64,000 bases of DNA from Lysobacteraceae bacterium (GCA_030681035.1 JAUXUI010000069.1:27674-91673); one strand, 5' to 3'. Shown: positions 26,901-46,566, counted from the first letter of the stretch. The notes: generated by a model not told the origin, from the sequence alone. Numbers and translations are program-made.

Positions 26901-27290
26901 CCGCTGACGGTGATCGGGGTGATGCCCGGCCATGCGCTGCTGGGCGCACCGTTCACCGCCACCTCGATGATCGGCATGATTGCGCTGGCCGGCATCATCG
27001 TGCGCAACTCGATCCTGCTGGTCGATTTCATCAACCACGCATTGGCGAAGGGCAAGGCGCTGGAAGACGCGGTGATCGAAGCCTGCGCAGTACGTGCGCA
27101 GCCAATCGTGCTGACCGCATTGGCGGCCATGCTTGGCGCTTTCTTCATCCTCGATGATCCGATCTTCAACGGCCTGGCAATTGCGCTGATCTTTGGCCTG
27201 CTGGTGGCCACCAGTTTGACCTTGATCATGATCCCATTGCTGTATTACGCCATGCTGCGGATTCGGCCACTCACAGGAGTCCAGTCATGA
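23895..27290 (+). CDS. RND family efflux permease (AcrB/HAE-type), with an in-frame ~70-codon repeat-derived insertion
   Basis: The start MSEHLGFSGRIARAF overlaps the MFP stop. 12-TM RND architecture (VDDAIVVVENIHRH, IVRNSILLVDF). About 1131 aa, which is longer than I recall for this family (from memory about 1030-1060 aa). Confidence 0.9.
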   Translation: MSEHLGFSGRIARAFQGNPLTPVLALAGLLLGLAAVLVTPREEEPQIDVTMANVTVPFPGASVEDVENLVSYPLEQVLAEIEGVRHVYSASRPGVAAITVEFQVGVPRQTAIVRLYNQVYANADWAPPGLGVGQPLVQPMGIDDVPVMALTLWTEDGARGATELAEVAHTLESELKRVPGTRDVYTIGAPDRAVLVQLDAARLAAYGLATEDLVGALRAANVVTQAGERIGAEGVVPVTAGTFLADADEVAELVIGLHQGKPVYLSDVAQVTRGADLPTQYVWHGAPAKRVGPAGIAPAVTLAVAKQPGRNAADITRAITQRMQALRGSLIPQGVQYTITRDYGQTATDKAEKLIHKLIFATSAVVLLMLVALGWREAVIVGTAVVVTLALTLFASWAMGFTLNRVSLFALIFAIGILVDDAIVVVENIHRHLRAGARSLHEAIAPAVDEVGGPTILATFTVIAALLPMAFVSGLMGPYMRPIPINASVGMLLSLVVALVLTPWLSAHLLAGAGAHASPSPSGETTHGLRAIGARALERLRRWRRPGREAGVGVRVQAKRTATASPDPHPQPLSRGERGAKPALSGMVSRFFERLLRPFLDVRAGARRRRWLFAGVGALVLLAAGLVAVQAVVLKMLPFDNKSEFQVVVDLPEGSTLEDTNALLAQLATALDDVPEVRDYQAYAGTSAPMTFNGLVRQYYLRRGANVGDLQVNLLDAQQRSRQSHVIAQAVRPVLAEIGSRAGASVKVVEVPPGPPVMAPIVAEVYAPTAADARAVASALRERFVATDGIVDIDTSMEADSAREIVVVDRARAAHLGISQASIAQTLQLALSGFDATYLRDGASKYAVPLRLRLPAGDQASMDGLLALRVRAGDGGLVPLSELVQVQRAGWEGAILHKDLLPVAYVTGDEAGASDSPLYGMFNLVGQLRDASLAGHRIDQHFIAQPLRSDAFAVKWDGEWQITYETFRDMGIAYAVGLVLIYLLVVAQFRSYLTPLVIMAPIPLTVIGVMPGHALLGAPFTATSMIGMIALAGIIVRNSILLVDFINHALAKGKALEDAVIEACAVRAQPIVLTALAAMLGAFFILDDPIFNGLAIALIFGLLVATSLTLIMIPLLYYAMLRIRPLTGVQS
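25446..25631. repeat. Palindromic REP/MITE-like element embedded in frame in the RND permease gene
   Basis: Inverted pair GGGGTTGGGGTGAGGGT / ACCCTCACCCCCAGCCCC plus hairpin CCCCTCTCCC-ga-GGGGAGAGGGG. It translates to ...GVGVRVQAKRTATASPDPHPQPLSRGERGA..., located after TM6 in the cytoplasmic loop. Confidence 0.6.
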
Positions 27291-27745
27291 GCGAAGGCGC
27301 GCAAATTTCCATCTCGCTTGAGCAAACCGGCGACTACGAGTTCCGCATCCGCTTCGAGGGCAGCGCGGTGGACGACCTGACCACCGACGAGCCAGCGCCA
27401 TTGGGCCATGACAACGGCCCGAATCCATCACGGCTGCTGCTGGCGGCGGTTGCCAATTGCCTGTCGGCAAGCCTGTTGTTCGCACTGCGCAAGTTCAAAA
27501 ACCAGCCCGGCGCGCTGCGCACCACCGCCACCGCGCACACCGAGCGCGATGCCGAGGGCCGCTGGCGCATCCCGCGCGCCGACGTGGTGCTGCATCTGGC
27601 CGAACCGGCCGCGCAGTACCAGAACCTCGACCGCATCCTCGCCCAGTTCGAAAACTTCTGCGTGGTCACCCAAAGCGTACGCGCCGGCATCGCGGTGGCG
27701 GTGCGAGTATGCGATGCCAAGGGCGTTACCGTACACGAAGCGTGA
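27287..27745 (+). CDS. OsmC/Ohr family peroxiredoxin-like protein
   Basis: GPNPSRLLLAAVANCLSASLLFALRK and FENFCVVTQSV show the two conserved Cys of OsmC. The start overlaps the RND stop. Confidence 0.85.
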   Translation: MSEGAQISISLEQTGDYEFRIRFEGSAVDDLTTDEPAPLGHDNGPNPSRLLLAAVANCLSASLLFALRKFKNQPGALRTTATAHTERDAEGRWRIPRADVVLHLAEPAAQYQNLDRILAQFENFCVVTQSVRAGIAVAVRVCDAKGVTVHEA

Positions 27746-27811
27746 GTGGTCGTTGGGCTATGGGTCGCCGATAGGATCGGCTGCTACCGGTGAGCGCAAC
27801 CGCGCTTTGTG

Positions 27812-27880
27812 GTCGCCCACAGGGTGGGCTCCTACAGGTCGGCGCACCCGGTTTTTGTAGGAGCCCACCCTGTGGGCGGC
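27812..27880. repeat. REP inverted pair (GTCGCCCACAGGGTGGGCTCCTAC family)
   Basis: gtcgcccacagggtgggctcctaca ... tgtaggagcccaccctgtgggcggc. Related copies lie at 61325-61390 and 51691-51714. Confidence 0.6.
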
Positions 27881-27897
27881 CCACGTCAAGACGGCGT

Positions 27898-27928
27898 TAC
27901 TCGTAGGGCAACTCGCCGGCCTTGCTCT
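27898..27928 (-). other. Orphan cydB 3'-end-like fragment (candidate island boundary repeat / att-like)
   Basis: Minus strand reads AAG AGC AAG GCC GGC GAG TTG CCC TAC GAG TAA (KSKAGELPYE*). The real cydB end at 37158-37190 reads TGG GGC AAG GCG GGT GAG TTG CGC TAC GAG TAG (WGKAGELRYE*). By my count 26 of 33 nt are identical. Confidence 0.45.
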
Positions 27929-28029
27929 TGACCGATTGAGCCGGCGGGGTAGACTCGCTGGCAGGTATTCATTCTGTCCGGCGTGGTTATCCCGCCGCCG
28001 TCATCATCAGCAAGGAAGGGGGTTTTCGC

Positions 28030-29673
28030 TTGGCGAAGGTAAGCCGCAAGAAAAACGATTCGTCCGCCAATCTCGGTTTCGAGGCCAAGCTCTGGCTCAC
28101 CGCCGACAAACTGCGCAACAACATGGATGCGGCGGAGTACAAGCACGTGGTGCTTGGGCTGATCTTCCTCAAATACATCTCCGATACGTTCGAGGAGCAC
28201 CGCGCCAAGCTCATCGAAGGCGAGGGCAGCTACGAGGGTGCCAATCCCGAAGACCCGGACGAATATAAGGCAGAGAATGTGTTCTGGGTGCCGGCCGATG
28301 CCCGCTGGTCGCACCTGCAGGCCAGTGCCAAGCAGCCCAGCATTGGCAAGACCGTGGACGACGCCATGGTTGCCATCGAGCGCGACAACCCGCGCCTCAA
28401 AGGCGTGCTGCCGAAAGACTACGCCCGCCCCGGGCTCGACAAGCAGCGCCTCGGCGAACTGATCGATGTCATCGCCACCATTGAACTCACAGCCGCCAGC
28501 GAGGGCGAAAAGACCCACCGCTCGGTCGATCTGCTCGGCCGCGTCTACGAATATTTCCTCACCCGCTTTGCCAGCGCCGAGGGCAAGAATGGCGGCCAGT
28601 TCTACACCCCGTCGTGCGTGGTGCGCTGCCTGGTCGAAATGCTCGCCCCTTACAAAGGCCGCATCTACGACCCCGCCTGCGGCTCGGGTGGCATGTTTGT
28701 GCAGTCGGAAAAATTCGTCGAATCGCACGGCGGCAAACTTGGTGACATCAGCATCTACGGCCAGGAGAGCAACGCCACCACCCGCCGCCTCGCGGTGATG
28801 AACCTCGCCCTGCGCGGCATCGAGGCCGACTTCGGCCCCGAGCATGCCGACACCTTCCGCCGCGACCTGCATCCCGACCTGCGCGCCGACTACGTGCTCG
28901 CCAATCCGCCGTTCAACGACTCCGACTGGTTCCGCAAGGATGACGACGTACGCTGGCAATTCGGCGTGCCGCCCAAGGGCAACGCCAACTTTGCCTGGGT
29001 GCAACATTTCGTCCATCACTTGGCACCGAACGGCATGGCCGGCTTCGTCCTCGCCAACGGCAGCATGTCCTCCAACCAGTCCGGCGAAGGCGACATCCGC
29101 CGCGCCCTGATCGAGGCCGATCTGGTGGACTGCATGGTCGCGCTGCCCGGTCAGCTTTTCTACAGCACCCAGATTCCCGTTTGCCTTTGGTTCCTCGCGA
29201 AAAACAAAGCCGCCCGTCATTCCCGCGCAGGCGGGAATCCAGAAAAAACAACAGACCGCCGCAAACAAACGCTGTTCATCGACGCCCGCAAACTCGGCAC
29301 ACTCATCGACCGAGTCCACCGCGAGCTGACCGACGCCGACCTGGAAAAAATTTCCTCCACCTATCACGCCTGGCGCGGCGATGCTCTTGATCGTCATTCC
29401 CGCGAAAGCGGGAATCCAGCGACTTACACCGACATCCCCGGCTTCTGCAAATCCGCAACCACCGCCGAAATCGCCGCCCACGGTCACGTCCTCACTCCCG
29501 GCCGCTACGTAGGCGCCGAAGAAGTCGAAGACGACGGCGAACCCTTCGAAGAAAAGATGCCGCGCCTTGTCGCCGAACTGCACGCCCAGTTTGCCGAATC
29601 CGAGAAGCTGGAGCAGGCCATCAAAGCCAACCTGATTGGGCTGGGCTATGACATAAAGGAGCCACGCGCATGA
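28030..29673 (+). CDS. hsdM: Type I R-M DNA methyltransferase subunit HsdM
   Basis: TTG start. [17 protein letters not shown], AdoMet motif [10 protein letters not shown], catalytic NPPF ([11 protein letters not shown]). Confidence 0.92.
29216..29242. repeat. 27-nt hairpin repeat (GTCATTCCCGCG-N3-CGGGAATCCAG family), in frame inside hsdM
   Basis: gtcattcccgcgcaggcgggaatccag translates as [10 protein letters not shown] within hsdM. Confidence 0.85.
29393..29419. repeat. 27-nt hairpin repeat, second in-frame copy inside hsdM
   Basis: gtcattcccgcgaaagcgggaatccag translates as [10 protein letters not shown] within hsdM. Confidence 0.85.
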
Positions 29674-30101
29674 GACTGAATACCGACCACCTCAAGCGCT
29701 GCATCGATACCCTGCGCTCGTCGCTCACATTTTATGAGCAGGCTGCGGCGGACAGCATAGACCAGGAAATTTTCCGCAACGCCATCGTCAAAGGCTACGA
29801 ACTGGCGCAAGAGACCAGCTTCAAACTGGTAAAAAAAGCCCTGCGTGATTACGGCCACGGCGCAAAAAAGCTCGACACCACGCCCATCAAGGATCTGCTG
29901 CGTTTGTCCGCCACCCATGGCTTGATGACACTCGAAGAAGTGGAACGCTGGTTTGCCTATCGCGACAACCGCAACAACACCGCCCATGACTACGGCGAAA
30001 ACTTCGCCAGGGAAACGCTACGCTTGATTCCCGGCTTCATTGCCGACGTGACGCGACTGGAAACCATCCTGCGCGAACGCTACAGCGAAGGAGACAACTG
30101 A
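29670..30101 (+). CDS. HEPN-domain protein (nucleotidyltransferase substrate-binding protein, HI0074 family)
   Basis: The Rx4H motif is in [12 protein letters not shown]. The ATGA start overlaps the hsdM stop. Confidence 0.8.
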
Positions 30102-30439
30102 TGCCCGAACGATCGTTGCAAACACTGGCGTTGCTGCCCCAGCATCTGGCGATGTTGCGCGCGCTGCTGCAACAGCATCTGCCGCACGCCGAGGTCTGGG
30201 CCTACGGCAGCCGCGTCAACGGCAATGGTCACGACGCCAGCGACCTCGATCTGGTGGTGCGTCAGCCGAACGACCTGAAACAGCAGACCCCCAAACTGGG
30301 AGAAACGCAGGAAGCCTTGTCCGAAAGCAACCTGCCCATTCGCGTCGAGATAGTGGATTGGGCGCGCATCCCGGCCAGTTTCCACCGCGAAATCGAGCAG
30401 GCGTATGTGGTGGTGCAGACGGCGCGTGCGCATGCTTGA
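30101..30439 (+). CDS. Minimal nucleotidyltransferase (MNT) partner of the HEPN protein
   Basis: The GSx10-12DxD motif is in YGSRVNGNGHDASDLDLVV. TGATG overlap with the HEPN gene. Confidence 0.8.
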   Translation: MPERSLQTLALLPQHLAMLRALLQQHLPHAEVWAYGSRVNGNGHDASDLDLVVRQPNDLKQQTPKLGETQEALSESNLPIRVEIVDWARIPASFHREIEQAYVVVQTARAHA

Positions 30440-30446
30440 GGCAAGG

Positions 30447-30493
30447 CAGGCCATCAAAGCCAACCTCACGGGCTTGGGGTATGGCAAGTGAGC
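30447..30493 (+). pseudogene. Orphan duplicate of the hsdM 3' end / hsdS start junction
   Basis: caggccatcaaagccaacctcacgggcttggggtatggcaagtga encodes QAIKANLTGLGYGK* with embedded ATGGCAAGTGAG (MASE). The first 20 nt are identical to 29614-29633. Confidence 0.6.
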
Positions 30494-30557
30494 AACAACA
30501 CTCGCGCCGCGCGCCGTCATCCCCGCGTCGCGTGCCGTCATTCCCTCACCCCTTCCT

Positions 30558-30584
30558 GTCATTCCCGCGAAAGCGGGAATCCAG
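30558..30584. repeat. 27-nt hairpin repeat, preceded by degenerate half copies at ~30516-30547
   Basis: gtcattcccgcgaaagcgggaatccag. Confidence 0.85.
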
Positions 30585-30593
30585 CCAACACAA

Positions 30594-30887
30594 ATGATCG
30601 ACAAACAGCCAGCGGTGTACATTCTTGCCAGCCGCCGCAACGGCACACTGTACGTCGGCGTCACCAGCGATCTCACCAAGCGGATATGGCAACATCAAAA
30701 CGACCTCGCCGAGGGCTTCACCCAGCGCTACAACGTGCATCTACTGGTCTGGTACGAACAACACAGCGAAATCGTAAGTGCCATCGTCCGCGAGAAGCAG
30801 ATCAAGAAATGGAACCGCGCGTGGAAACTCACATTGATCGAAGCAAAAAACCCACAATGGCACGACCTGTGGCCGACTCTGCTATGA
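30594..30887 (+). CDS. GIY-YIG nuclease family protein (small URI-domain protein)
   Basis: AVYILASRRNGTLYVGVTSDLTKRIWQH.....GFTQRYNVHLLVWYE......AIVREKQIKKWNRAWK. Confidence 0.85.
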   Translation: MIDKQPAVYILASRRNGTLYVGVTSDLTKRIWQHQNDLAEGFTQRYNVHLLVWYEQHSEIVSAIVREKQIKKWNRAWKLTLIEAKNPQWHDLWPTLL

Positions 30888-30934
30888 GCCCGCCATGCGT
30901 CCGCGTACCCGAAGCCGGCAGGCAACCGGTGGCT

Positions 30935-30961
30935 CTGGATTCCCGCTTTCGCGGGAATGAC
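30935..30961. repeat. 27-nt hairpin repeat (inverted orientation)
   Basis: ctggattcccgctttcgcgggaatgac. Confidence 0.85.
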
Positions 30962-30977
30962 GGCAGGGGGTTGGGCT

Positions 30978-32287
<1,310 letters not shown>

Positions 32288-32291
<4 letters not shown>

Positions 32292-33358
32292 GCAAAAAGA
32301 AACCCACACCCGGCGGTCGCGCCAAGAAAAAGGCCGAAGTCTCCCTCGTCCGCTCGTCGGCGGCGGAATACCTGACCTTTGTGGCGGCTGGAGGCGCCTC
32401 TGAAGCCAGCGTTGAAATGCGCTACGAAGATGAAAACGTCTGGCTCACGCAGAAGATGATGGCGGCGCTTTACGATGTCTCCGTCCCCGCCATCAACCAG
32501 CACCTGAAGCGCATTTTCAGCGACAACGAACTGGAGGAAAGTTCAGTTGTTAAGCAATACTTAATAGCTGCCGCAGACGGCAAAAATTACCTGACGAAGC
32601 ACTACAGCCTGCAAGCGATCATCGCCGTGGGCTTCAAGATCGAGAACGAGCGGGCCGTCCAATTCCGCAAATGGGCCAACCAGATCGTGAAGGACTACAC
32701 GATCCAAGGCTGGACGATGGATGCGGAGCGCCTCAAGCAAGGTGGCATCCTGACGGATGAGTTTTTTGAGCGGCAGCTTGAGAAGATTCGGGAAATCCGG
32801 CTCTCCGAGCGAAAGTTCTACCAGAAAATCACGGACATTTACGCCACCGCGCTGGACTACGACCCGTCCGCTACGGCGACGAAGCGCTTCTTTGCCGCAG
32901 TGCAAAACAAGATGCACTTCGCCGTGCATGGCCAGACGGCGGCTGAGGTGATCGTGGACCGCGCCGACCATCAAAAACAAAACATGGGGCTGACGACTTG
33001 GGAGGCTGCGCCGAAAGGGAAAATCCAACGCTACGACGTTTCCATCGCCAAGAACTACCTCTCGGACTCCGAAATGGGCCAGATGCAGCGCATCGTCTCC
33101 GCCTACCTCGACATGGCCGAGATGCAGGCGATGCGGAAGATTCCGATGACCATGGAAGACTGGGAAAAGCGCTTGAGCGGCTTCCTCCAACTCTGGGACC
33201 GGGACATTCTACAGGACGCGGGCAGAGTGTCGGCGGAACTGGCAAAGGCCCATGCCGAGAGCGAGTTTGAGAAATACCGCATCGTGCAGGACCGGCTGTT
33301 CGAGTCGGACTTTGACCGGATAATCAAGGAGCTGCCGTCGGGGGCCGACAAGTCATGA
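32288..33358 (+). CDS. rhuM: RhuM family (virulence protein RhuM-like) protein embedded between hsdS and hsdR
   Basis: [75 protein letters not shown] overlaps at both ends. Confidence 0.8.
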
Positions 33359-36300
33359 GCCTCAACGAATCCACCGTCGAAGACGCCGCCCTCGAATGGT
33401 TCAGGGAGCTGGGCTATGCGATCGGCCACGGGCCGCAACTCGCACCCGGTGAGCCGGCGGCAGAGCGCGATTCGTTTGCCGAGGTGGTGCTGGCGGGGCG
33501 ATTGCGTGAAGCCATCGCGCGATTGAACCCCTCCATTCCGGAAGACGCACGGGATGAAGCGCTGCGCAAGGTGTTGAGAGTAGGGACGCCTTCGCTGACG
33601 CAGAGCAACCGTGCCTTTCACCGGATGCTCAGGGACGGGGTTGATGTTGAATACCCACGTGAGGACGGCTCGATCAAGGGCGACAAGGTTTTACTCGTCG
33701 ATTTTGCGGATGTCCGGGCAAATGACTGGTTCGTCGTGAACCAATTCACCGTGATCGAGGGCCAGCACAACCGGCGGCCGGACATCGTGGTGTTCCTCAA
33801 TGGGCTGCCGCTGGGCCTGATCGAGCTGAAGAACGCGGCGGATGAGGACGCGACGATCTGGAGCGCCTACGCGCAGTTGCAAACCTACAAGGCGGAGATT
33901 CCCAGTCTGTTGCATTACAACGCGGCGCTGGTGGTGAGTGATGGCTTGCAGGCGCGCATGGGTTCGGTGACGGCGAACCAGGAATGGTTCAAGGTCTGGC
34001 GCACGATTGATGGCGAGGGTGACGCGCCGAAGGCGGCGCTGGAGCTGGAAGTGCTGATACGCGGGGTGTTCGAGCGGCAGCGCTTGCTCGACTTGCTGCA
34101 CCACTTCATCGTTTTCGAGGAAGACCCGGATTCGGGCGCGCTGCACAAGATCATCGCCGGCTACCACCAGTTTTACGCGGTGAATGCCGCGGTGGAAGAA
34201 ACCGTGCGCGCCAGTGGCATGCGTGTACACGAGGAGGCCGGCAGGTATTGGGCGGGCCGGATGCACGGTGGCAAACCGGGCGATCGTCGCGCCGGCGTGG
34301 TCTGGCACACGCAGGGCAGCGGCAAGAGTTTTTCGATGCTGTTTTTTGCCGCGCGCGTGGTGCGGCATGCGGCGATGCAGAACCCGACGCTGGTGGTGCT
34401 GACTGACCGCAATGATCTTGATGACCAGCTTTTCGGCCAGTTCCAACGCTGCGCCGACATCCTCGGCCAGACGCCGGTGCAGGCCGGCGGGCGCGAGCAT
34501 TTGCGCGAGCTGCTGAACCGTGCCAGCGGCGGCGTGGTGTTCACCACCATTCACAAGTTCATGCCCGAAAAAGGCGAGGCGATGCCCGAGCTGAGCGCGC
34601 GGCAGAACATTGTCGTGATTGCGGATGAAGCGCACCGCAGCCAGTACGGGTTTGGCGGCAAGGTGGATGAAAAGACCGGCGATATGACCTACGGCTTCGC
34701 CAGCAACCTGCGCGATGCCTTGCCCAATGCGTCGTACATCGGTTTCACCGGCACCCCCATCGAAAAGACCGACGCCAACACGCGGGCGGTGTTCGGCGAT
34801 TACATTTCCATCTACGACATCCAGCGCGCCGTTGCCGACAAAGCCACGGTGCCAATCTATTACGAGAGCCGCATTTCCAAGCTGAGCCTGAATGCTGCCG
34901 AGCTGCCGCAGCTCGATGAAGAGTTCGAGGAAATCACCGAAGGCGAGGAACTGACGAGGAAGGAAAAGCTCAAGACCAAGTGGGCCGCGCTGGAGGCGCT
35001 GGTGGGCGACCCGAAACGCATCGCGCTGGTGGCCGCCGACCTGGTGACGCATTTCGAGAAACGCCTGGAGGCGATGGACGGCAAGGCAATGATTGTGTGC
35101 ATGAGCCGCCGCATTGCCGTCGACCTGTACAACGCGCTGATCGATCTGCGGCCGGAGTGGGCCAGCGCCCAGGACGACGATGCGGAGGTGGAAAAGGGCA
35201 AGGCCTGTGTGGTGAAGGTGGTTATGACCGGCAGTGCCGACGATGGCCCCGATTGGCAGCCGCATATCCGCAGCAAGGACAAGCGCCGCAAGCTGGCGTA
35301 CCGTTTCAAGGATGTCAACGACCCGTTCCGTATCGTGATTGTGCGCGACATGTGGCTGACCGGGTTCGACGCGCCCTGCCTGCACACCATGTACGCCGAC
35401 AAGCCGATGCAGGGCCACGGACTGATGCAGGCCATCGCCCGGGTGAACCGCGTTTTCCGCGACAAGCCCGGCGGCTTGGTCGTGGATTACCTCGGCCTTG
35501 CCGATCAGCTCAAGCAGGCGCTGGTGACCTACACCGAGAGCGGCGGGCAGGGTGATCCCACTTTCGACACCGCGCAAGCCATTGCCGTGATGTTGGAGAA
35601 ACACGGCATCGCTTGCGACCTGATGCACGGCCTCGACTGGCGCAAGTGGACCAACGGCAAACCTGCTGAGCGCCTTGCCCTCATGCCCGCTGGGCAGCAA
35701 CACATCCTCGAACAGGCTGACGGCAAGCAACGCTGGGTGCAGATGGTGACCGAACTCTCGCGTGCCTTTGCCCTTTGCGCGGCCAGCGATGAGGCGACGG
35801 CAATCCGCGACGACGTTTCCTACTTCCAGGCCCTGCAAGCCGCGCTCAACAAGCAGACCAGCGAGAACCGCAAGACCCCCGAGCAGATCGATGCCGCAAT
35901 CCGCCAGCTCGTGAGCCGTGCCATCACTACCGAAGGCCAGGTGATCGATGTTTTCACTGCTGCCGGCTTGCCCAAGCCGGACATCAGTATCTTGAGTGAT
36001 CAGTTTCTCGCCGAAGTGCGCGGACTCAAGCACAAAAACGTCGCCGCCGAGCTGCTGGAGAAGTTGCTCAAGGATGAACTCAAGGTGCGCGCTCGGCGCA
36101 ACCTGGTGCAGAGCCAGGTGTTTTCGGAGAAGCTCAAAAAGACCCTCAACGCGTATCACAACCGTGCCATCTCGACGATGCAGGTAATCGAGGAACTGAT
36201 CAATCTCGCCAAGGACCTCGATGCCGCCAGCAAGCGCGGCGAAGACATGGGCCTGAGCGTCGATGAAGTGGCCTTTTACGACGCGTTGGCTGCCAACGAA

Positions 36301-36540
36301 TCCGCCGTGATTGCGATGGGCGACGACAAGCTGCGCGTCATCGCCGCCGAGCTGATCACCAAGGTTCGGCAAAGCACCACGATCGATTGGCAGTATCGCG
36401 AAAGCGCCCGCGCCAGAATCCGCGTCATCGTCAAGCGCATCCTCAACAAATATGGCTACCCACCCGATCTGCAGAATGCCGCCGTCCAACTGGTGTTGCA
36501 GCAAGCGGAGTTGCTGTCAGCTGAGTGGGCGGTGGCGTAG
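33355..36540 (+). CDS. hsdR: Type I restriction endonuclease R subunit HsdR
   Basis: [21 protein letters not shown]. Nuclease region [20 protein letters not shown]. Helicase motifs [31 protein letters not shown]. Confidence 0.92.
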
Positions 36541-36610
36541 CTGGTGGCGTAGCCGGTGGCGGAAAGCTGGGTCGGTCGCGAATGGCGCTTACATAAGCCA
36601 GAACACCCTC

Positions 36611-36883
36611 AATTCGTCATTCCCGCGAATGCGGGAATCCAGTGACTTTAATTCGTCATTCCCGCGAATGCGGGAATCCAGTGACTTTAATTCGTCATTC
36701 CCGCGAATGCGGGAATCCAGTGACTTTAATTCGTCATTCGCGCGAATGCGGGAATCCAGTGACTTTAATTCGTCATTCCCGCGAATGCGAGAATCCAGTG
36801 ACTTTAATTCGTCATTCCCGCGAATGCGGGAATCCAGTGACTTTAATTCGTCATTCCCGCGAATGCGGGAATCCAGTGACTTT
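36611..36883. repeat. Tandem array: 7 x 39 bp units, each containing the 27-nt hairpin
   Basis: The unit is aattcgtcattcccgcgaatgcgggaatccagtgacttt, starting at 36611, 36650, 36689, 36728, 36767, 36806 and 36845. Two units carry single substitutions (copy 4 c->g, copy 5 g->a). Confidence 0.92.
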
Positions 36884-36942
36884 GGGAAATTGGGCACAAG
36901 CGAAAGAAACTGGATGCCGGCTGTAGCCTGCCCTCGAATGTT

Positions 36943-37060
36943 TTAAGGAAACTCTGAACAAGTCGTCACCCCGGCGAAGGCCGGGGTCCAGGTTATTGAT
37001 TCTGCTGGATTCCCGCTTTCGCGGGAATGACGAAATCCAACTTGTTCAGAGCGTCCTTAA
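36943..37060. mobile_element. MITE-like element: terminal inverted repeats flanking two hairpin modules
   Basis: Left end TTAAGGAAACTCTGAACAAGT. Right end ACTTGTTCAGAGCGTCCTTAA, whose reverse complement is TTAAGGACGCTCTGAACAAGT. Internal hairpins GTCACCCCGGCGAAGGCCGGGGTCCAG (36965-36991) and CTGGATTCCCGCTTTCGCGGGAATGAC (37005-37031). Confidence 0.55.
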
Positions 37061-37157
37061 TGGGGGGGCTCTGGCATGACGACGCTACAAGTGCCACTGG
37101 GACGGACGCGATGGTCTGTTTGGGTCGGCACCGTGGCCGACCTGCACCAAGCCAACA

Positions 37158-38165
37158 CTACTCGTAGCGCAACTCACCCGCCTTGCCCCAGAACACCCGG
37201 TACGCATACACGGTGTAGGCGATGATCACCGGCAGGGTGATTGCCACGCCGACCAGGATGAAGCGCAGCGATGCCGGGGCGCTGGCGGCTTGCGTGTAGG
37301 TGATGCGATCCACCACCAGATACGGGAACAGGCTGTAGCCGAGGCCGGCGAAGGCGAGCATGAACAGGCTCACTGTGGCGGCAAACGGTTGCCAACTGCC
37401 GTAGCCGCGATGGTGGTGCAGGCGGCGCAGGGTGCGCTCGCACCAGGCGAACACCAGCGCGCTGGCGAGCGGTACCGGCAGCAGCCAGTAAAAGTTGGGC
37501 AGGGTGAACCACTTGACGTAGATGCGTTCGCTGATCAGCGGGGTGGCCAGCGATACCGCGACGATGCCGAGGCCGCACAGCCACAGTGCCCAGCGCGCCC
37601 AGCGCACTGCGCGCGATTTCAGTTCGCCCTCGGTCTTGAGGATCAGCCAGGTGGCGCCGAGCAGGGCGTAGCCGGCGAGCAGCCCGAGCGCGATCAATGC
37701 GGCGAATGCCATCGCCATGGCGCCGTCGCGAAAGCCGGTGATGTAACTGCCGAGCATGTAGCCTTGCGCCAGCGCGGTGATGATCGAGCCGCTGACGAAC
37801 ACCCGGTTCCACAGCGTCTTGTGGCTGGCGTGCGCCTTGACCCGGAAATCGAATGCGACACCGCGCAGCACCAGGCCAATCAGCATCACCGCCACCGGCA
37901 GGTACAAGGCGGTGAGGATCACCCCGTGCGCCTGCGGAAACGCGATCAACAGGATGCCGACGCCGAGCACCAGCCAGGTTTCGTTGGCATCCCAGAACGG
38001 TCCGATCGAAGCGATCATCACGTCTTTGTCGGCGTCGTCGGCCAGGGCCACCAGCGCGCCGACGCCGAGATCGAAGCCGTCGAGGATCACATAAGCCAGC
38101 ATCGCCGCGCCCATCAGGCCGACGAAGATCAGCGGCAGCAGTGCATCGGGAATGAGGGTGTCCAT
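37158..38165 (-). CDS. cydB: Cytochrome bd-type ubiquinol oxidase subunit II (CydB/CioB)
   Basis: Start MDTLIPDALLPLIFVGLMGAAMLAYVILDGFDLGVG...FWDANETW. TGATG overlap with cydA. Confidence 0.85.
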   Translation of the reverse strand: MDTLIPDALLPLIFVGLMGAAMLAYVILDGFDLGVGALVALADDADKDVMIASIGPFWDANETWLVLGVGILLIAFPQAHGVILTALYLPVAVMLIGLVLRGVAFDFRVKAHASHKTLWNRVFVSGSIITALAQGYMLGSYITGFRDGAMAMAFAALIALGLLAGYALLGATWLILKTEGELKSRAVRWARWALWLCGLGIVAVSLATPLISERIYVKWFTLPNFYWLLPVPLASALVFAWCERTLRRLHHHRGYGSWQPFAATVSLFMLAFAGLGYSLFPYLVVDRITYTQAASAPASLRFILVGVAITLPVIIAYTVYAYRVFWGKAGELRYE

Positions 38166-39517
38166 CAGGCCTCCCGCACATCGAGGATCGGTTGCCCCGG
38201 CGCGTGATCGTCGCCGGGAAGCGCAGCCTGCGCCTTGCGCGCCATATGGAACAACACCCAGACGTAGGCCAGCAACAGTGCCGCGTACAGTGCCAGATAC
38301 AGGCTCAGGCTGATTGCGATCAGCGGTGCGGGCACCGCCGATGCGGCATCGCTGCTGCGCAGGATGCCCTGCACCAGCCACGGCTGGCGCCCGATTTCGC
38401 TGACGTACCAGCCCGCCAGTACCGCCAGCCAGCCCGAGAAAGTCATCGCCAGCAGTGCCGTCAGCACCATCGGCGACAACGTGTCGCGGCGCCACAATTG
38501 CCAACGCGCCCACCACGCCACCAGCAGCATCAGCACGCCGATGCCGAGCATGGCGCGGAAGGCGAAGAACACCGGTGCCACCGGCGGGTGTGCATCAGGA
38601 AAACTGTCGAGGCCGCGCACCTCGCCATCCAATCGGTGGGTCAGAATCAGGCTGGCGCCGTTTGGAATGGCGATGGCGGCGCGATTGCTGCGGCTGGCTT
38701 CATCGGGTAGCGCAAACAACAGCAGCGGCGCGCCGCGCTCGTCCTGCCACACCGCTTCCATCGCAGCGACCTTGGCCGGCTGGTATTGCAAGGTGTTCAA
38801 CCCATGCAGATCACCAACGAAGATCTGCACCGGGATCAGCAGCGCGGCCACGGTGACCGCGGTGCGCAGGGTCTTGCGCAGTTCGTCGCTGCGCTCACCG
38901 CGACGCCAGCGATAGGCCGACAAGCCGGCCACCAGAAACGCAGCGGTCAGCCCGGAAGCCAGCATCATGTGGACGAAGCGATACGGGAACGAGGGGTTGA
39001 AGATCACCGCCCACCAGCTTTGCACATGCGCCACGCCATCGATCATCTCGAACCCCTGCGGCGTCTGCATCCACGAGTTGAGGGCGAGGATCCAGAATGC
39101 CGACACCGTGGTGCCGATGGCAACCAGCGCGGTCGCCAGGGTATGGATGCGCGGCGATACCCGCTGCTGGCCGAACAGCATGATGCCGAGGAAGCTGGCT
39201 TCAAGAAAAAATGCGGTCAGCACTTCGTAACCGAGCAGCGGCCCGGCGATGTTGCCGACCTTCTGCATGAAGCCCGGCCAGTTGGTACCGAACTGGAAAC
39301 TCATGGTGATGCCCGACACCACGCCGAGCGCAAACGTCAGCGCGAACACCTTCACCCAGGTGCGATAGGCCGCCGCCCAAGCCGGATCGCCGGTGTGGCG
39401 ATGGCGCAATTTGAAGAACAGCAGCAGCCACGCCAGCGCCAGAGTGATGCTGGGGAACAGGATGTGGAAACTCATGTTGGCGGCGAACTGCAAGCGCGCG
39501 AGCATGATCGGGTCCAT
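38165..39517 (-). CDS. cydA: Cytochrome bd-type ubiquinol oxidase subunit I (CydA/CioA, short Q-loop type)
   Basis: Start MDPIMLARLQFAANMSFHILFPSITLALAW. EASFLGIMLFG, GWYVSEIGRQPW. Confidence 0.85.
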   Translation of the reverse strand: MDPIMLARLQFAANMSFHILFPSITLALAWLLLFFKLRHRHTGDPAWAAAYRTWVKVFALTFALGVVSGITMSFQFGTNWPGFMQKVGNIAGPLLGYEVLTAFFLEASFLGIMLFGQQRVSPRIHTLATALVAIGTTVSAFWILALNSWMQTPQGFEMIDGVAHVQSWWAVIFNPSFPYRFVHMMLASGLTAAFLVAGLSAYRWRRGERSDELRKTLRTAVTVAALLIPVQIFVGDLHGLNTLQYQPAKVAAMEAVWQDERGAPLLLFALPDEASRSNRAAIAIPNGASLILTHRLDGEVRGLDSFPDAHPPVAPVFFAFRAMLGIGVLMLLVAWWARWQLWRRDTLSPMVLTALLAMTFSGWLAVLAGWYVSEIGRQPWLVQGILRSSDAASAVPAPLIAISLSLYLALYAALLLAYVWVLFHMARKAQAALPGDDHAPGQPILDVREA

Positions 39518-39712
39518 CGACGACTCTCCTGAGTACCGGCAGCGAAATCCGGTGTCCAGCCTGTGGATCAAACTGGATACCGCTATGGTTTCTCTGAATA
39601 AGCGGTCATTGTGAGGGGCGGAGCGATGTGGCATACGATTCCGCATGGCCTTCAGGCCATAGCGGATCGGAGTCCTTTAGGGCAATCCAGAAATGTCCGG
39701 GAAAACAAGTCG

Positions 39713-39741
39713 CTGGATTGCTTCGCTACGCTCGCAATGAC
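39713..39741. repeat. Degenerate hairpin repeat plus ACTTGTTCAGAG end motif (half MITE)
   Basis: ctggattgcttcgctacgctcgcaatgac is followed by gacttgttcagagcgttcc at 39752-39770. Confidence 0.5.
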
Positions 39742-39969
39742 GCCGAATTGGACTTGTTCAGAGCGTTCCTATCGTGGGTATGATGGAATCCCATCTGTGC
39801 AAGGCATCGCTGGTTTCAGCGATACCCTTTGTAACGCGATGTACAGGAAGCCGATTTTACACTGTCACTGGTCCGACGTGTGCCGGTGCGTTGAACCGTT
39901 GTGACCCGGCGCGCGGCGATTGTTGCGCATGCCGGGTCATGCCACTCGCGGCTTCTCGCCATTCCGCAA

Positions 39970-40347
39970 TCAGTTGCCGCGCCCGCCGCCTTGGCGTGGA
40001 CGTGAGCCCTGGCCATCACCGTAACGGCTGCCATCGCGCGCACGATCCTTATTGCCGGTGCCATCGCGCTTTTGTGTCTGCTGGCCTTGGCCGTTGTCGT
40101 CAGCGTTGCGCGGGCCAAACCCGGCTTGCGTACGCTCTTCTGGCGTCATGTTCTGGGCGCGCGACTGCATTTCGGTACGAAAACGCGCTTGATCGTCAGC
40201 GCTCATGTTGCGCGCTTCACTGCGCAATTGGATCAATTGTTCATTGCTCAGCGCGCTGTAGTCGGTGGCGTCCTGGGCGACGGCACTGCTGGCAAATGCA
40301 ATGGCAGCGAACAATGCAGTGGTGATCAACGCGGTCTTGAGGGTCAT
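39970..40347 (-). CDS. Small secreted protein with low-complexity basic/Gly tail (possible CpxP/Spy-like periplasmic modulator)
   Basis: Start MTLKTALITTALFAAIAFASSAVAQD (signal peptide). Helical segment SNEQLIQLRSEARNMSADDQARFRTEMQSRAQNMTPEERTQ. Divergent from the OmpR-family two-component genes. Confidence 0.5.
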   Translation of the reverse strand: MTLKTALITTALFAAIAFASSAVAQDATDYSALSNEQLIQLRSEARNMSADDQARFRTEMQSRAQNMTPEERTQAGFGPRNADDNGQGQQTQKRDGTGNKDRARDGSRYGDGQGSRPRQGGGRGN

Positions 40348-40516
40348 GGCCGATTTCCTTTCAGGGGGGAGGGATGGCACCTTGCAGGTACCGGTAGCCA
40401 AGGTGGACGATAGCGGTTTCGCGGCGATTTCCAACCGCATTCAAGATGTAACAAGATGTTGCGTCGCGGCCGCGTGCGCTTGCGGAATGTGGCGGTCAAC
40501 GCGCAGAGTTGACGCC

Positions 40517-41236
40517 ATGGAGCACAACAGCGAGCACATTCTCATCGTCGATGACGACCCCGACTTGAGTCAGCGGCTGGCGCGCTATCTTGAAGAACAG
40601 GGGTATTCGGTTGCACTGGCCGGTGATGGCGAGCAGATGTTTGCGCAGATGGCGGTGCGCAGGCCGGATCTGCTGCTGCTCGATCTGATGTTGCCGGGTG
40701 AAGATGGCTTGTCGCTGGCGCGTCGCCTGCGGGCCGATCAATGGGTGCCGATCATCATGTTGTCGGCGCGTGGCGAGGATGTGGATCGCATCGTCGGGTT
40801 GGAAGTGGGGGCTGACGATTACCTGGCCAAGCCATTCAATCCGCGTGAACTGCTGGCACGGATTCGTGCGGTACTCAGGCGCCGCAGCGGCCCGACAACC
40901 CATCTGCCACCGGCCCGGCAGACCTATGCGTTCGGGCCGTTCCGGCTCGATCCGATCGGCCATCGCATTACGCGTAATGGCGCTGAAGTCACATTGACTT
41001 CGGCCGAGTTCAGCTTGCTGCGGCTATTCAACGAGCACCCCAACCAGGTGCTCAGTCGTGATCGCCTGATTGACCTGTTGAAGGGCTACGACCGCTCCCC
41101 GTTTGATCGCTCCGTTGACGTGCGCGTCACGCGGTTGCGGCGCAAGATCGAAGTCGATCCGACAGTGCCGCAGTTCATCCGCACCATCTGGGGCGAAGGC
41201 TATTTGTTCGCGCCCGATGGCGGTCAGCAGCCATGA
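40517..41236 (+). CDS. OmpR/PhoB-family response regulator
   Basis: ILIVDDDPDLSQRLARYLEEQGY, LLLLDLMLPGEDG. Winged-helix output domain (VDVRVTRLRRKIE, IRTIWGEGYLF). Confidence 0.9.
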   Translation: MEHNSEHILIVDDDPDLSQRLARYLEEQGYSVALAGDGEQMFAQMAVRRPDLLLLDLMLPGEDGLSLARRLRADQWVPIIMLSARGEDVDRIVGLEVGADDYLAKPFNPRELLARIRAVLRRRSGPTTHLPPARQTYAFGPFRLDPIGHRITRNGAEVTLTSAEFSLLRLFNEHPNQVLSRDRLIDLLKGYDRSPFDRSVDVRVTRLRRKIEVDPTVPQFIRTIWGEGYLFAPDGGQQP

Positions 41237-42531
41237 AACGGTTGCGCCTTGGCTTGTTCTGGCGAACCGCGCTCGCGCTGATTGTGCCGTTTTTGTTGGT
41301 GCAATCGGCGTTGGTGGCGGTGTTCGTGGTGCAGGTAAACCTGCCGCTGGCACGCAGCGCCACCGAGGATCTGGCGGCGTTGATTACCTTGGCGACGCAG
41401 ACGTGGGTGGAGTTGCCGCCGGAAACTCGCGCTGATTACCAGGCCGAGTTGCGGTCGAACCATCATTTGCTGATGCAGCCGGCGCATGGTCCGCAGCCGG
41501 GCGTGGAGACGCACTGGCCTTATCTGGCGCTATTGCAGAACGCGTTGACCGAGCGCATGGGTGTTGAATCGCACCTCACGCGCAGCAGCAACCCCGAGAT
41601 GTACTGGGTTGATCTGCCGACGCCCGAGGCGGTTCTTCGGATCGGCTTCAGCCACGACCGGATTGGAGCTTATCCATCGCGTGTCGTGATCGCTGGCGTA
41701 TTGGCCATTGTGCTGGCCTCGTTGCTTACTGCGATGTTGCTCGCGCGCTGGTTGACGCGGCCATTGGCGCGACTGGCCCGGGCAACGGATGCGGTTGGGC
41801 AAGGCGATTTGCCGCCACCGCTGCCAGAATCCGGGCCGCGCGAGTTGCAGCTGCTGGCTAGGCGCTTCAACCACATGGCACGCGACGTGCGCCACCTGCT
41901 GGAAAGCCGGACGACCTTGCTGGCCGGAGTCTCGCACGACCTGCGCACGCCGTTGGCGCGTTTGCGACTATCGCTGGCGATGCTGCCCGAGTCCGTCGAT
42001 TCGGTGTTGATCGCCGATATCGAGCGCGATGTCGAGAGCATGGATCGGTTGATCGGTCAGCACCTGAGTTTCGCGCGTGGTGCTGCGCGCGAGGTACCGC
42101 AACCTTGCGATCTGGGCGAAATCCTGGATGAAGCGATAGCCGACGTGCGCCGTCAAGGGGCACAGGTGATCTGGCAGGCACCGGATCACTGCATCCGCAG
42201 CATACCGGTGCTGGCACTGCGGCGGGCATTGGCCAACTTGCTGGACAACGCTTGGCGGCACGGGCAGGGCAGCGCGCTGGAGGTGCAACTGGATTGCGCA
42301 CCGGCGCAGGCGGTGGTGCGGATTCTGGATCGCGGCCCGGGGGTCGCCGAGGATGAGCGCGAGAGCGTGTTCGAGCCGTTCCGGCGTGCGCGGCAATCGC
42401 GTGCCCCCGGCAGCGGCCTGGGGTTGGCGATCGTCCGCCAATTGGCCCAGGCCAACGGCTGGGCGGTGAACCTGCATGCACGCGATGGCGGCGGAACCGA
42501 GGCGCGTGTGGAAATGCCGACGTCTGCGTAG
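41233..42531 (+). CDS. EnvZ/CpxA-like sensor histidine kinase
   Basis: HAMP region followed by the H-box LLAGVSHDLRTPLARLRL. N, G1 and G2 boxes (LLDNAWRHG, DRGPGV, GSGLGLAIV). The start overlaps the regulator stop. Confidence 0.85.
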   Translation: MKRLRLGLFWRTALALIVPFLLVQSALVAVFVVQVNLPLARSATEDLAALITLATQTWVELPPETRADYQAELRSNHHLLMQPAHGPQPGVETHWPYLALLQNALTERMGVESHLTRSSNPEMYWVDLPTPEAVLRIGFSHDRIGAYPSRVVIAGVLAIVLASLLTAMLLARWLTRPLARLARATDAVGQGDLPPPLPESGPRELQLLARRFNHMARDVRHLLESRTTLLAGVSHDLRTPLARLRLSLAMLPESVDSVLIADIERDVESMDRLIGQHLSFARGAAREVPQPCDLGEILDEAIADVRRQGAQVIWQAPDHCIRSIPVLALRRALANLLDNAWRHGQGSALEVQLDCAPAQAVVRILDRGPGVAEDERESVFEPFRRARQSRAPGSGLGLAIVRQLAQANGWAVNLHARDGGGTEARVEMPTSA

Positions 42532-42888
42532 ATCGGCTCATGCAGTGCTACAGAAACATCTTGTAACTATTTTTCGTGCTGTGGAAATGGCAAGGAAACT
42601 TTTGCTGTTCATGCTTGAACACAAGGCACTCGTGAGGTGCCAGCGTGTTGAACGGTTCCGGCCGGCTTCGCCGAGCCCTCCCCCTCCCCTCCTGGCGGAG
42701 TCGGTCTGGAACCCCAACCCACAACATTCTCCTCTGGAACAAGCGATGAGCACGCAGACTTTCCCTGACAGCAGGCGCTTGCTTCTTTGGGTGCCACCGA
42801 ATGCGATGCCATCCATGCTCCTGACACGCGGCCGTTGCGATGCGAAGCGTGTGGTTTCGATACGGCATTGCGGCATTGGGGCGGCACA

Positions 42889-44040
42889 ATGAAGCGCCTG
42901 CGATTGCACCGCCGTACCCTGACCCTGTTGGCCGTTGTCGTTCCGTTGCTGCTCCTGTTGGGGTATGTCGCGCTGCGCTCCGGGCCAATGGCGCCGGTTG
43001 CGGTAACCGTCGCCACGGTGCAATCGCAGGCGCTGGCGCCCGCGCTGTACGGTATCGGCACGGTCGATGCGCGCTACACGTACAAGATCGGCCCAACCTT
43101 TGCCGGGCGCTTGCAGCGGCTCGATGTGGATGTCGGCGATCAGGTAGCGGCCGGGCAGGTGCTCGGCGAAATGGATCCGGTTGATCTGGATGACCGCGTA
43201 CGCTCGCAGGAGTCCACATTCAAGCGTGCGCAAGCGGCGCTGCGCGAGGCCGAGGCGCGGCAGGCGTATGCTCGTGCGCAGTTGGCCCGCTATCAACAAT
43301 TGCTGGTCGCACGCCTGATCAGCGAGGAAGTCGTCGCCACCCGGCAGCAGGAATTGCAGATCGCCGATGCGGTGTTGTCGGCAGCGCGCGAGGACATCGC
43401 CCGAACGCGATCCGATCGCGAGGCGTTGCTGGCGCAGCGCAGCAATCTGCGCCTGATCGCGCCAGTCGATGGTGTGGTGTCGCTGCGCCATGTCGATCCC
43501 GGTACCACCGTTGTTGCCGGTCAGGCGGTGGTGGAAGTGATCGAGCCAAGCAGCCTGTGGATCAATGTGCGTTTTGATCAGATCAGCGCGACGGGGCTGG
43601 TTGCGGGCTTGTCTGCACGCATCGTGCTGCGTTCGCGCAGCGGGCAAGTGCTGAATGGCCGGGTGGCAAGGGTTGAACCGATGGCCGATGCGGTGACCGA
43701 GGAGACGCTTGCCAAGGTGGCCTTCGACCAACAACCGGAGGCGATGCCGCCGATCGGCGAACTGGCTGAGGTGACGGTCGATTTGCCGGCACTTGCCGCC
43801 GCGCCGGTGATCCCCAATGCCGCGGTTCGGCGCGAGGGTGAGCGACTCGGCGTATGGCAGATCGTCGATGGCGATCCGTATTTCACGGTGCTTGTACTCG
43901 GTGCCTCGGACCTTGATGGGCACGTGCAGGTACGCAGCGGGCTGAAGATGGGCGATCAGCTGATTGTCTACAGTGAAAAACAGCTGACGGCGCGCAGCCG
44001 TATCGATATCGTCGAACGCATTCCGGGCGTGTCGCCGTGA
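42889..44040 (+). CDS. HlyD/MacA-like periplasmic adaptor of an ABC exporter
   Basis: Start MKRLRLHRRTLTLLAVVVPLLLLLG. Coiled-coil region, then LRLIAPVDGVVSLRHVDPGTTV. Confidence 0.8.
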   Translation: MKRLRLHRRTLTLLAVVVPLLLLLGYVALRSGPMAPVAVTVATVQSQALAPALYGIGTVDARYTYKIGPTFAGRLQRLDVDVGDQVAAGQVLGEMDPVDLDDRVRSQESTFKRAQAALREAEARQAYARAQLARYQQLLVARLISEEVVATRQQELQIADAVLSAAREDIARTRSDREALLAQRSNLRLIAPVDGVVSLRHVDPGTTVVAGQAVVEVIEPSSLWINVRFDQISATGLVAGLSARIVLRSRSGQVLNGRVARVEPMADAVTEETLAKVAFDQQPEAMPPIGELAEVTVDLPALAAAPVIPNAAVRREGERLGVWQIVDGDPYFTVLVLGASDLDGHVQVRSGLKMGDQLIVYSEKQLTARSRIDIVERIPGVSP

Positions 44041-45239: not shown

Positions 45240-45243
45240 TCAA

Positions 45244-45954
45244 ATGAAAACGAACGGTATCCGTGTCGAGGGTTTGAGCAAGCGTTATGGCAAGGGCGCT
45301 GCTGCCGTCGATGCGTTGAAGCTCGTCAACATGCAGGTGGCGCCGGGCGAGGTTGTGGGTTTGATCGGGCCCTCGGGCTCGGGCAAGAGCACCCTGCTCA
45401 AGTGCCTGGGCGCGGTAATCGACCCCACGGCCGGGCGCATGATCCTGGGCGACGAGGTGACCTATGACGACGGCTGGAAAGTGCGCGATTTGCGCGCCTT
45501 GCGCCGCGACAAGATCGGCTTCGTGTTCCAGGCGCCATACCTGATCCCGTTTCTCGATGCCACCGACAACGTCGCGCTGTTGCCGATGTTGGCCGGGGTG
45601 GCCAACGCCGAGGCGCGCGCCAAGGCGCTGGAGCTGCTTGCCGCACTGGATGTCCAGCATCGCGCCAAGGCGATGCCATCCGAGCTCTCCGGCGGCGAGC
45701 AACAGCGGATTTCCATTGCGCGTGGTCTGGTCAACCGCCCGCCGGTGATTCTGGCCGATGAGCCAACCGCGCCGCTCGATTCGGTGCGTGCGATGGCCGT
45801 CATCCGCATCCTCAACGACATGGCACGCAAGTTTGAAACCGCGATCATTGTGGTCACCCACGATGAAAAAATCATCCCGACGTTCAAACGCATCTATCAC
45901 ATTCGCGACGGCGTGACCCACGAGGAAGCCGGCGAGGGTAGGGCGTTCGCATGA
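45244..45954 (+). CDS. ABC transporter ATP-binding protein
   Basis: Walker A GPSGSGKST, signature LSGGEQQR, Walker B ILADEPT. Confidence 0.88.
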   Translation: MKTNGIRVEGLSKRYGKGAAAVDALKLVNMQVAPGEVVGLIGPSGSGKSTLLKCLGAVIDPTAGRMILGDEVTYDDGWKVRDLRALRRDKIGFVFQAPYLIPFLDATDNVALLPMLAGVANAEARAKALELLAALDVQHRAKAMPSELSGGEQQRISIARGLVNRPPVILADEPTAPLDSVRAMAVIRILNDMARKFETAIIVVTHDEKIIPTFKRIYHIRDGVTHEEAGEGRAFA

Positions 45955-46478: not shown

Positions 46479-46566
46479 CAAGCGCCCGGCACCGCGTGCC
46501 GCACATTGCCGCGTCGTTGCTGCGTAAGCGTCGGCTCCCGCCCTGCGGGCTTTGCGCCGACCTACT

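Follow-up and report, generated by a model that had tools for sequence, protein, structure and literature searches.

Introduction

Restriction-modification (R-M) gene complexes inserted with long target duplication were reportedly noticed by Nobusato and colleagues in 2000. Cis-mobilizable elements (CIMEs) of Streptococcus thermophilus, found at the fda 3' end, also lack an integrase, are bounded by attL/attR-like repeats from the 3' end of a protein gene and often carry R-M genes; their repeats are recognisable att sites, with identical cores, of the integrases of known integrative and conjugative elements. Defence-island hotspots between conserved core genes exchange their cargo by flanking homologous recombination, leaving no duplicated gene end. 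Here, we describe a 9207-bp insert with a Type I R-M operon, located between osmC and the convergent gene cydB (cytochrome bd subunit II) in a 64,000-nt stretch of DNA from a Lysobacteraceae bacterium (GCA_030681035.1, JAUXUI010000069.1:27674-91673). This whole stretch is called the window and all its coordinates are counted from its first letter; it belongs to contig C119 of its own 3.6-Mb genome, designated G000. The segment is an insertion with an empty site in relatives, where a single 54-nt sequence is common to both junctions; it has no mobility genes, and its two border copies of the 54 nt are too diverged to have arisen by duplication within the lineage.

The class of R-M insertion with long target duplication has been described (Furuta, Abe and Kobayashi, 2010, Nucleic Acids Research (NAR) 38:2428, PMC2853133) as R-M units without mobility genes, set between direct repeats of more than 30 bp, both of which match one copy in a related genome. 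The set includes a Haemophilus influenzae Type I system in which extra genes are embedded and whose 46-bp repeat overlaps a gene 3' end, and the repeats in the tables for the class are mostly 93-100% identical (PMC2853133). The locus described here is structurally a case of this class, all of whose formal features were found: the insert carries hsdM, hsdS and hsdR (Pfam), its direct border repeats exceed 30 bp (a 54-nt pair) and are unique in the genome, related genomes have an uninterrupted target in which one copy aligns to both repeats, and mobility genes are absent from the unit and its borders. It differs from the class in that the copies are identical at 40 of 54 positions rather than nearly identical, near-identity being typical of the class and no formal criterion. 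Their divergence exceeds that of neutral sites when the occupied lineage is compared with the empty one, and therefore at least one of the copies was not made on the spot.

Like the CIMEs, the island lies between att-like repeats of a protein-gene 3' end, without a recombination module and with R-M genes; unlike them, it has no known cognate integrase or element here, and the longest identical run between its repeats is 9 nt. Islands of tyrosine integrases likewise target a gene 3' end, leave the gene intact and have a partial copy at the far border, but the integrase gene that defines them is absent from this island and its contig. Similarly, the osmC-cydB cargo differs among relatives as it does in defence-island hotspots, whereas segments of the flanking genes are duplicated here and, at osmC, chimeric.

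Border repeats and empty site

An orphan cydB-type end lies at 27897-27929 on the minus strand (AAGAGCAAGGCCGGCGAGTTGCCCTACGAGTAA, translated as KSKAGELPYE and a stop) and the resident cydB end at 37158-37190 on the same strand (TGGGGCAAGGCGGGTGAGTTGCGCTACGAGTAG, translated as WGKAGELRYE and a stop). Our recount agrees with the 26/33 nt identity given by the first-pass annotation of this DNA, and the pair of cydB-end repeats that it reported is present; its left coordinates (27898-27930) are one base too high, and the repeat extends beyond the 33 nt that it recognised. An unbiased repeat search (family D7) returned a 54-nt direct pair with 9261 bp spacing and 40/54 identical positions (74%), made up of the final 29 nt of cydB, stop included, and 25 nt 3' of the stop:

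27872-27925, minus strand: orphan copy (O) of the 54-nt repeat, with 29 nt of cydB-type frame end including the stop (27897-27925) and 25 nt of cydB-downstream sequence
37133-37186, minus strand: resident copy (R) of the 54-nt repeat, with the functional last 29 nt of cydB and 25 nt downstream

The similarity thus extends 25 nt beyond the stop codon, and its far end is the edge of a repetitive extragenic palindromic (REP) element, with which the 54-nt repeat overlaps by its last ~10 nt only. No third position in the window, scanned on both strands, matches the 33-nt end at 22/33 or better, and across the 3.6-Mb genome at least 36/54 identity to the 54-nt repeat is found at two places only, the two border copies. 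For control, 30 random 54-mers of the window mostly had a best match of 31-37/54 in the genome, with one at 45. Chance and a multi-copy repeat as the source of the pair are ruled out by these window and genome scans. The 9-nt run that is the longest shared by the orphan and resident copies (CTACGAGTA) is compatible with a short att core and not diagnostic of one. The orphan lacks the FWG motif of the conserved CydB tail (FWG[KR]xxxLxY[ED] before the stop), which characterises the CydB subtype of the window, a subtype present in about 22 of 150 sampled family genomes; in the same sample, the "KAGEL" core in CydB tails is restricted to the window's own cluster.

Relatives were gathered by a protein search, which gave a cluster of 17 CydB sequences at least 90% identical, and their contigs were then compared. 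Ten metagenome or metagenome-assembled genome (MAG) contigs from several samples (JGI, ENA, NCBI, Logan; L096-L099 and L106-L111) have an empty site. They come from close relatives, with cydAB about 95% identical, and are ordered cydB, 224 bp of REPs, osmC, with one 54-nt copy and neither R-M genes nor an orphan. In L106, positions 983-3379 align to window 39529-37133 and positions 3326-3422 to window 27925-27828, and the 54 nt common to both junctions (L106 3326-3379) align to 37186-37133 and to 27925-27872. The empty-site contigs have the REP element of 27811-27881 at the corresponding position. What lies between the two repeats was genuinely inserted. It had been proposed beforehand that an empty site should join the cydB end to the osmC flank; such a join, with a single cydB end, is seen in all 10 contigs, and the contrary case, in which relatives without the R-M genes still keep the orphan, did not occur among them. 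An origin of the empty site by simple excision between the present copies was considered and is not favoured, its pattern of R-like and O-like positions needing 4 switches and not one.

Divergence of the two copies

The resident copy (R), the orphan copy (O) and the empty site (E) were compared over the 54 nt. R differs from E at 5 positions, all within the 25 non-coding nt, the coding part being identical; O differs from E at 9 (4 coding, 5 non-coding); and R differs from O at 14/54 (26%), among them 10/25 (40%) in the non-coding part. The first two distances sum to the third (5+9=14), and at every position E agrees with R or with O. These two properties would follow from one copy keeping the chromosomal allele at each position, as after a reciprocal recombination, and a single crossover together with about five lineage differences would explain the R/O/E pattern. 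The first-pass annotation had described the repeats as an attL/attR-like pair, a description that fits in so far as each copy aligns to the single empty-site copy and the three distances add up.

As a neutral calibration, the fourfold-degenerate sites of cydA, cydB and osmC were compared between G000 and the empty-site lineage, giving 57 differences at 536 sites (10.6%). The divergence of R from O is above this value (P=0.0012 for the whole repeat, P=0.0001 for the non-coding part), whereas ordinary lineage divergence could account both for O versus E and for R versus E in the non-coding part (P about 0.12 each). Duplication after the split from the empty-site lineage cannot exceed 10.6% divergence, and 26% is therefore too large for a duplication within the lineage. 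Three of the 4 coding differences between R and O fall at third-codon or stop positions (GCC/GCG, GGC/GGT, TAA/TAG), and the coding differences look allelic rather than like decay, four sites being too few for proof. Because the resident copy matches the empty-site allele throughout its coding part, nothing indicates that a coding end came with the island; of the proposed integration into the gene 3' end with a replacement end, the insertion at the cydB end thus stands, but only the 25 nt after the stop could have been replaced. Polarity was also sought in the outgroup alleles L089 and L092, with which the orphan shares GCC GGC and CGCC, suggesting that the orphan is foreign; this argument is weak, the same sites being polymorphic among resident copies (L114, L083), and was set aside.

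Gene content of the insert

The insert proper (27926-37132, 9207 bp) holds the Type I R-M operon with embedded HEPN-MNT, GIY-YIG and RhuM modules, and ~600 bp of host repeats on the hsdR side, in agreement with the earlier description of an R-M locus plus repeat arrays. The remaining features of the locus are as follows:

27287-27745, plus strand: osmC, left flanking gene, convergent with cydB (Pfam OsmC, E=5.6e-13)
27811-27881, no strand: REP-type palindromic host element, with >40 copies at 85-94% identity in the window's own genome
27926-28029, plus strand: left insert end, upstream region of hsdM, absent from the empty-site contigs and identical in the same-species MAGs L085 and L087
28030-29673, plus strand: hsdM, Type I methylase (Pfam N6_Mtase, HsdM_N)
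29670-30439, plus strand: cassette of HEPN (NTase_sub_bind) and MNT nucleotidyltransferase (Pfam PF08780, PF01909/PF18765)
30446-30486, plus strand: orphan copy of the hsdM 3' end (…QAIKANLTGLGYGK and a stop), 83% identical to 29613-29653 (repeat family D5)
30594-30887, plus strand: small GIY-YIG open reading frame (ORF), 97 aa, from the ORF list, with Pfam PF01541 on the matching gene in MAG locus L085
30957-32291, plus strand: hsdS (Pfam Methylase_S; 437 aa in the MAG annotation)
32288-33358, plus strand: RhuM-family gene between hsdS and hsdR (Pfam Virulence_RhuM, E=1.4e-103)
33355-36540, plus strand: hsdR, Type I restriction subunit (Pfam HSDR_N, SWI2_SNF2, T1RH-like_C)
36611-36883, no strand: host hairpin repeat array of seven tandem 39-bp units (Tandem Repeats Finder: period 39, 7.0 copies, 98% matches)
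36943-37060, no strand: 118-bp element like a miniature inverted-repeat transposable element (MITE), with TTAA at both ends (sequence comparison; repeat family matches elsewhere in G001-G004)
37061-37132, no strand: unique right insert end, 72 bp (…CTGGCATGACGACGCTACAAGTGCC…GGTCGGCACC), absent from the empty site and conserved in L083 and L114
37158-38165, minus strand: cydB, cytochrome bd subunit II, 335 aa, intact, with the canonical tail VFWGKAGELRYE before the stop (Pfam Cyt_bd_oxida_II)
38165-39517, minus strand: cydA, cytochrome bd subunit I, 450 aa (Pfam Cyt_bd_oxida_I; 450 aa also in the MAG gene calls)

The likely true start of hsdS is at ~30977 (MASEWKN). At the point of the MITE-like element, lineage L083 has a single TTAA and no MITE, a clean empty site for that element.

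Pfam searches of all island ORFs found no recombinase or transposase, and no recombinase was found in the same-species MAG copies of the island. The tyrosine-recombinase family PF00589, searched genome-wide, has seven members, none of them on contig C119; the earlier remark that no integrase is visible in the island therefore holds by Pfam for the island and by PF00589 for the contig. No mobility genes were found in or beside the R-M unit, DDE transposases and serine recombinases not having been searched genome-wide. Insertion of a transposon or insertion sequence was rejected as an explanation: there is no transposase, the border repeat is direct and 54 nt long, and the sole element with terminal inverted repeats is the internal 118-bp MITE.

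HsdM is 85-92% identical to proteins from Rhodoferax, Sulfuritalea, Verrucomicrobia and Lentisphaerae MAGs, and the G+C content of the island (58-62%) is below that of the flanks (64-67%). Since HsdM resembles proteins of unrelated phyla and the island has this lower G+C content, the R-M unit is taken to have been acquired horizontally. At the DNA level, 400 family genomes yielded no close relative of the island, the highest identity being about 72%, within hsdM and hsdR, and the junction sequences had no match in the same 400. The island of the same-species MAGs L085 and L087 is 99.9% identical with an identical orphan junction, and L083/L084 and L114 have the same hsdR-side junction next to cydB (only the right junction is seen in these).

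Several further observations concern the R-M genes themselves. In-frame host palindromic repeats lie inside hsdM at 29213-29258 and 29390-29435 (GTCATTCCCGCG..GCGGGAATCC) and encode variable-linker peptides, one of them RHSRESGNP; HSRAGGNP occurs at the same linker in the HsdM homologues P0136 and P0146 from other taxa, and the linker of P0137 and P0139 is shorter. In a 98%-identical version of the island (L114 483-1352), AbiEii takes the slot of RhuM upstream of hsdR, and the accessory slot before hsdR is exchangeable. A second, partial RhuM-like sequence, 76-83% identical to the island rhuM, is found ~5 kb upstream of the window start (G000:C119:22535-23095).

Variation around osmC and cydB

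The osmC-cydB interval is a variable hotspot in this Xanthomonadales/Lysobacterales lineage, its cargo among relatives being the R-M unit, a HipA island, nothing, or deletions. The gene osmC adjoins a resistance-nodulation-division (RND) pump gene, a pairing conserved in four other species of the genus (G001-G004), in which homology ends just past the osmC stop. No cydB was found in any of the four; the cydAB pair is absent from G001, G002 and G004, and G003 (about 93% identical) has osmC joined to a 476-bp internal cydA fragment and then to window ~46556. In G001 and G004 osmC is joined to ~39857-39969, and in G002 there is other DNA. Lacking cydB, these same-genus genomes were rejected as empty sites and show the hotspot only; an orphan remnant in G003 was likewise rejected, its 26-nt spacer being matched in score by 44% of shuffled sequences.

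Other genomic contexts of cydAB are seen in L089-L091, L092-L095 and L100-L105. Among relatives at least 90% identical, cydAB (37158-39646) occurs in at least 3 contexts, with homology ending about 16-25 nt past the cydB stop, and cydAB behaves as a module that is movable or often lost. Another lineage carries about 5 tandemly arrayed units of about 49 nt downstream of cydB (CGGCAACTGCTCCTGCGTTGCTCTACCTCCGCCATCCATGGCGTCGC; L092 2556-2900, L100 5689-6000). On the other side, G003 and L106-L110 lack a block at 39519-46555 (response regulator, histidine kinase and MacB-type ABC exporter), and in L106-L110 the gene immediately before cydA is one for an S1-P1 nuclease. L085 and L096 have the block, and the hotspot thus has a second presence/absence polymorphism next to it.

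A 4.6-kb HipA island in G004 (L038, G004:C24 14124-19397) is flanked by a full osmC on one side and by a second osmC with an internal deletion on the other; it consists of a 750-aa ORF without a Pfam match and a 614-aa HipA_C kinase, and no integrase was found in it. In L106-L108 this island recurs at 94.5% identity (L106 3578-8564), after a full osmC that adjoins cydB. The osmC repeat around the island is about 430 nt long, and the cydB-side copy has an island-specific N-terminus (MSNSVRIDVS), with an internal loss of ~210 nt in G004. In the first osmC of G004 the 5' part is of native type and the 3' end of G000/L106 type (146/153 identical to G000); the second combines a 5' end that is specific to the island and also found in L106 with a 3' end of G001/G002 type. 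Reciprocal chimeras of this kind are the signature of recombination within a homologous gene segment during transfer.

Within the R-M island, the hsdM tail occurs three times and brackets the HEPN-MNT and GIY-YIG cassettes: the functional tail at 29613-29653, a copy at 30446-30486, and a remnant (GLGYGE and a stop) at ~30968-30985, by the hsdS start. The second copy keeps the canonical …GLGYGK before the stop, and the functional tail ends differently. On a freshwater metagenome contig (L112 9223-19510), a related R-M unit with 90% identical HsdM forms an insert of ~10.2 kb at the 3' end of tRNA-Gly(gcc), bordered by a 30-nt repeat of the tRNA-Gly 3' end with 29/30 identical positions. That insert also holds a 392-aa ORF and the genes of a PIN toxin-antitoxin pair; it showed no integrase domain, and the 392-aa ORF was dismissed as an integrase, its only match being a sub-threshold one to a replication protein family.

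Inserts bounded by imperfect repeats of gene 3' ends are thus recurrent here. Their repeat lengths range from 13-18 to about 430 nt, and therefore one att system cannot explain all of them. The same architecture at osmC and at the hsdM tail points to homology recombination rather than to a dedicated att site, which lends weight to the alternative named in the first-pass annotation, acquisition by recombination through flanking homology.

Discussion

The explanation we lean towards is that a horizontally acquired Type I R-M islet, with no recombinase of its own, entered the cydB-osmC hotspot by Campbell-type recombination with a diverged copy of the 54 nt that it carried. The incoming DNA would have carried the islet together with that copy, spanning the cydB end to the REP edge, and a reciprocal, Campbell-type crossover between it and the chromosomal cydB end would leave one 54-nt copy on each side of the 9207-bp insert, the cydB-proximal copy keeping cydB intact and the distal copy becoming a functionless orphan. 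The recombination would act through homology and the host machinery, possibly stimulated by double-strand breaks, and repeat-flanked islets may spread between related strains by the same route. Several points weigh against this explanation. A 54-nt stretch of about 83-90% identity, in which the orphan shares no identical run longer than 9-11 nt with the other copies, is a very poor RecA-type substrate; one crossover does not suffice for the pattern of differences, which calls for about 5 further changes, and these are compatible with lineage divergence (P about 0.12) without proving it; the alleles of the region are polymorphic among close lineages (L083, L114), so that either copy may be the foreign one; and published long-target-duplication repeats are usually 93-100% identical, against 74% here.

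Site-specific integration of a decayed or non-autonomous CIME-like element is possible, if unlikely; its attP would contain a cydB-end look-alike, its tyrosine integrase would have been lost or be located elsewhere, and the two copies would be attL and attR. The targeted gene 3' end, direct repeats that coincide with the borders and an empty site with one copy all suit such an event, as does the additive divergence expected of attB x attP hybrids, and any of the seven PF00589 genes elsewhere in the genome could act in trans. No recombinase is present in the island, the same-species MAGs or the contig, however, and the repeats have no long identical core, their longest run being 9 nt. The related unit at the tRNA-Gly 3' end between 29/30 repeats is again what such integration would produce, but that island is likewise without a recognisable integrase, and the osmC (~430-nt, chimeric) and hsdM-tail parallels lie beyond any one att system. 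True target duplication at insertion, by staggered breaks and fill-in, is the literal model of the published class; the copies would have diverged later by mutation or by gene conversion with other alleles, and an unconstrained orphan could decay in a region whose alleles around the stop codon are polymorphic among close lineages. We regard it as very unlikely in view of the 14/54 differences (10/25 non-coding) set against 10.6% at neutral sites (P=0.0012 and 0.0001), the 99.9% identity of the island among same-species MAGs, and the allelic-looking coding differences, 3 of 4 of which are at third-codon or stop positions.

The orphan might instead be the stub of an older resident cydB, replaced by incoming cydAB with R-M genes downstream through homology-facilitated illegitimate recombination, an origin that seems highly improbable; in detail, a homologous crossover upstream and an illegitimate join 29 nt before the old stop would be needed. 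The presence of cydAB in at least 3 contexts among relatives at least 90% identical, with homology ending about 16-25 nt past the stop, its missing or fragmentary state in G001-G004, and the GCC GGC and CGCC that the orphan has in common with the more distant alleles L089 and L092 would all accord with replacement. Yet the empty-site allele is nearer the resident than the orphan (5 versus 9 differences; 0 versus 4 in the coding part), the opposite of what a native orphan would lead one to expect, and a donor with R-M genes already beside cydB and without an orphan is required. At fourfold sites, the divergence of cydAB from the empty-site lineage (8.5-11.8%) also equals that of osmC (12%), giving no sign of recent cydAB import.

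A broader and rather improbable proposal is that the hsdM-tail cassettes, the R-M unit at the cydB end, the HipA island with chimeric osmC and the R-M unit at tRNA-Gly form a nested series reflecting one integrase-free entry route for defence cargo at gene 3' ends in REP-rich hotspots. A repeat-flanked unit would loop out with one repeat copy and enter a naive relative again through ends-in homologous recombination, and every round would give rise anew to diverged, chimeric repeats. If true, this cycle would give long-target-duplication elements a defined life cycle, which was proposed by Furuta et al. and never demonstrated.

The locus reveals no new kind of system, its type of insertion having been described already. 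The diverged and chimeric repeats argue against staggered-cut duplication as the source of the repeats. Together, the diverged repeats at cydB and the chimeric repeats of the HipA island provide sequence-level support for the spread of such islets between relatives by means of a carried target copy. With both empty and occupied sites available, the locus is a natural example of how a defence island without mobility genes enters a chromosome and leaves the neighbouring respiratory gene undamaged.

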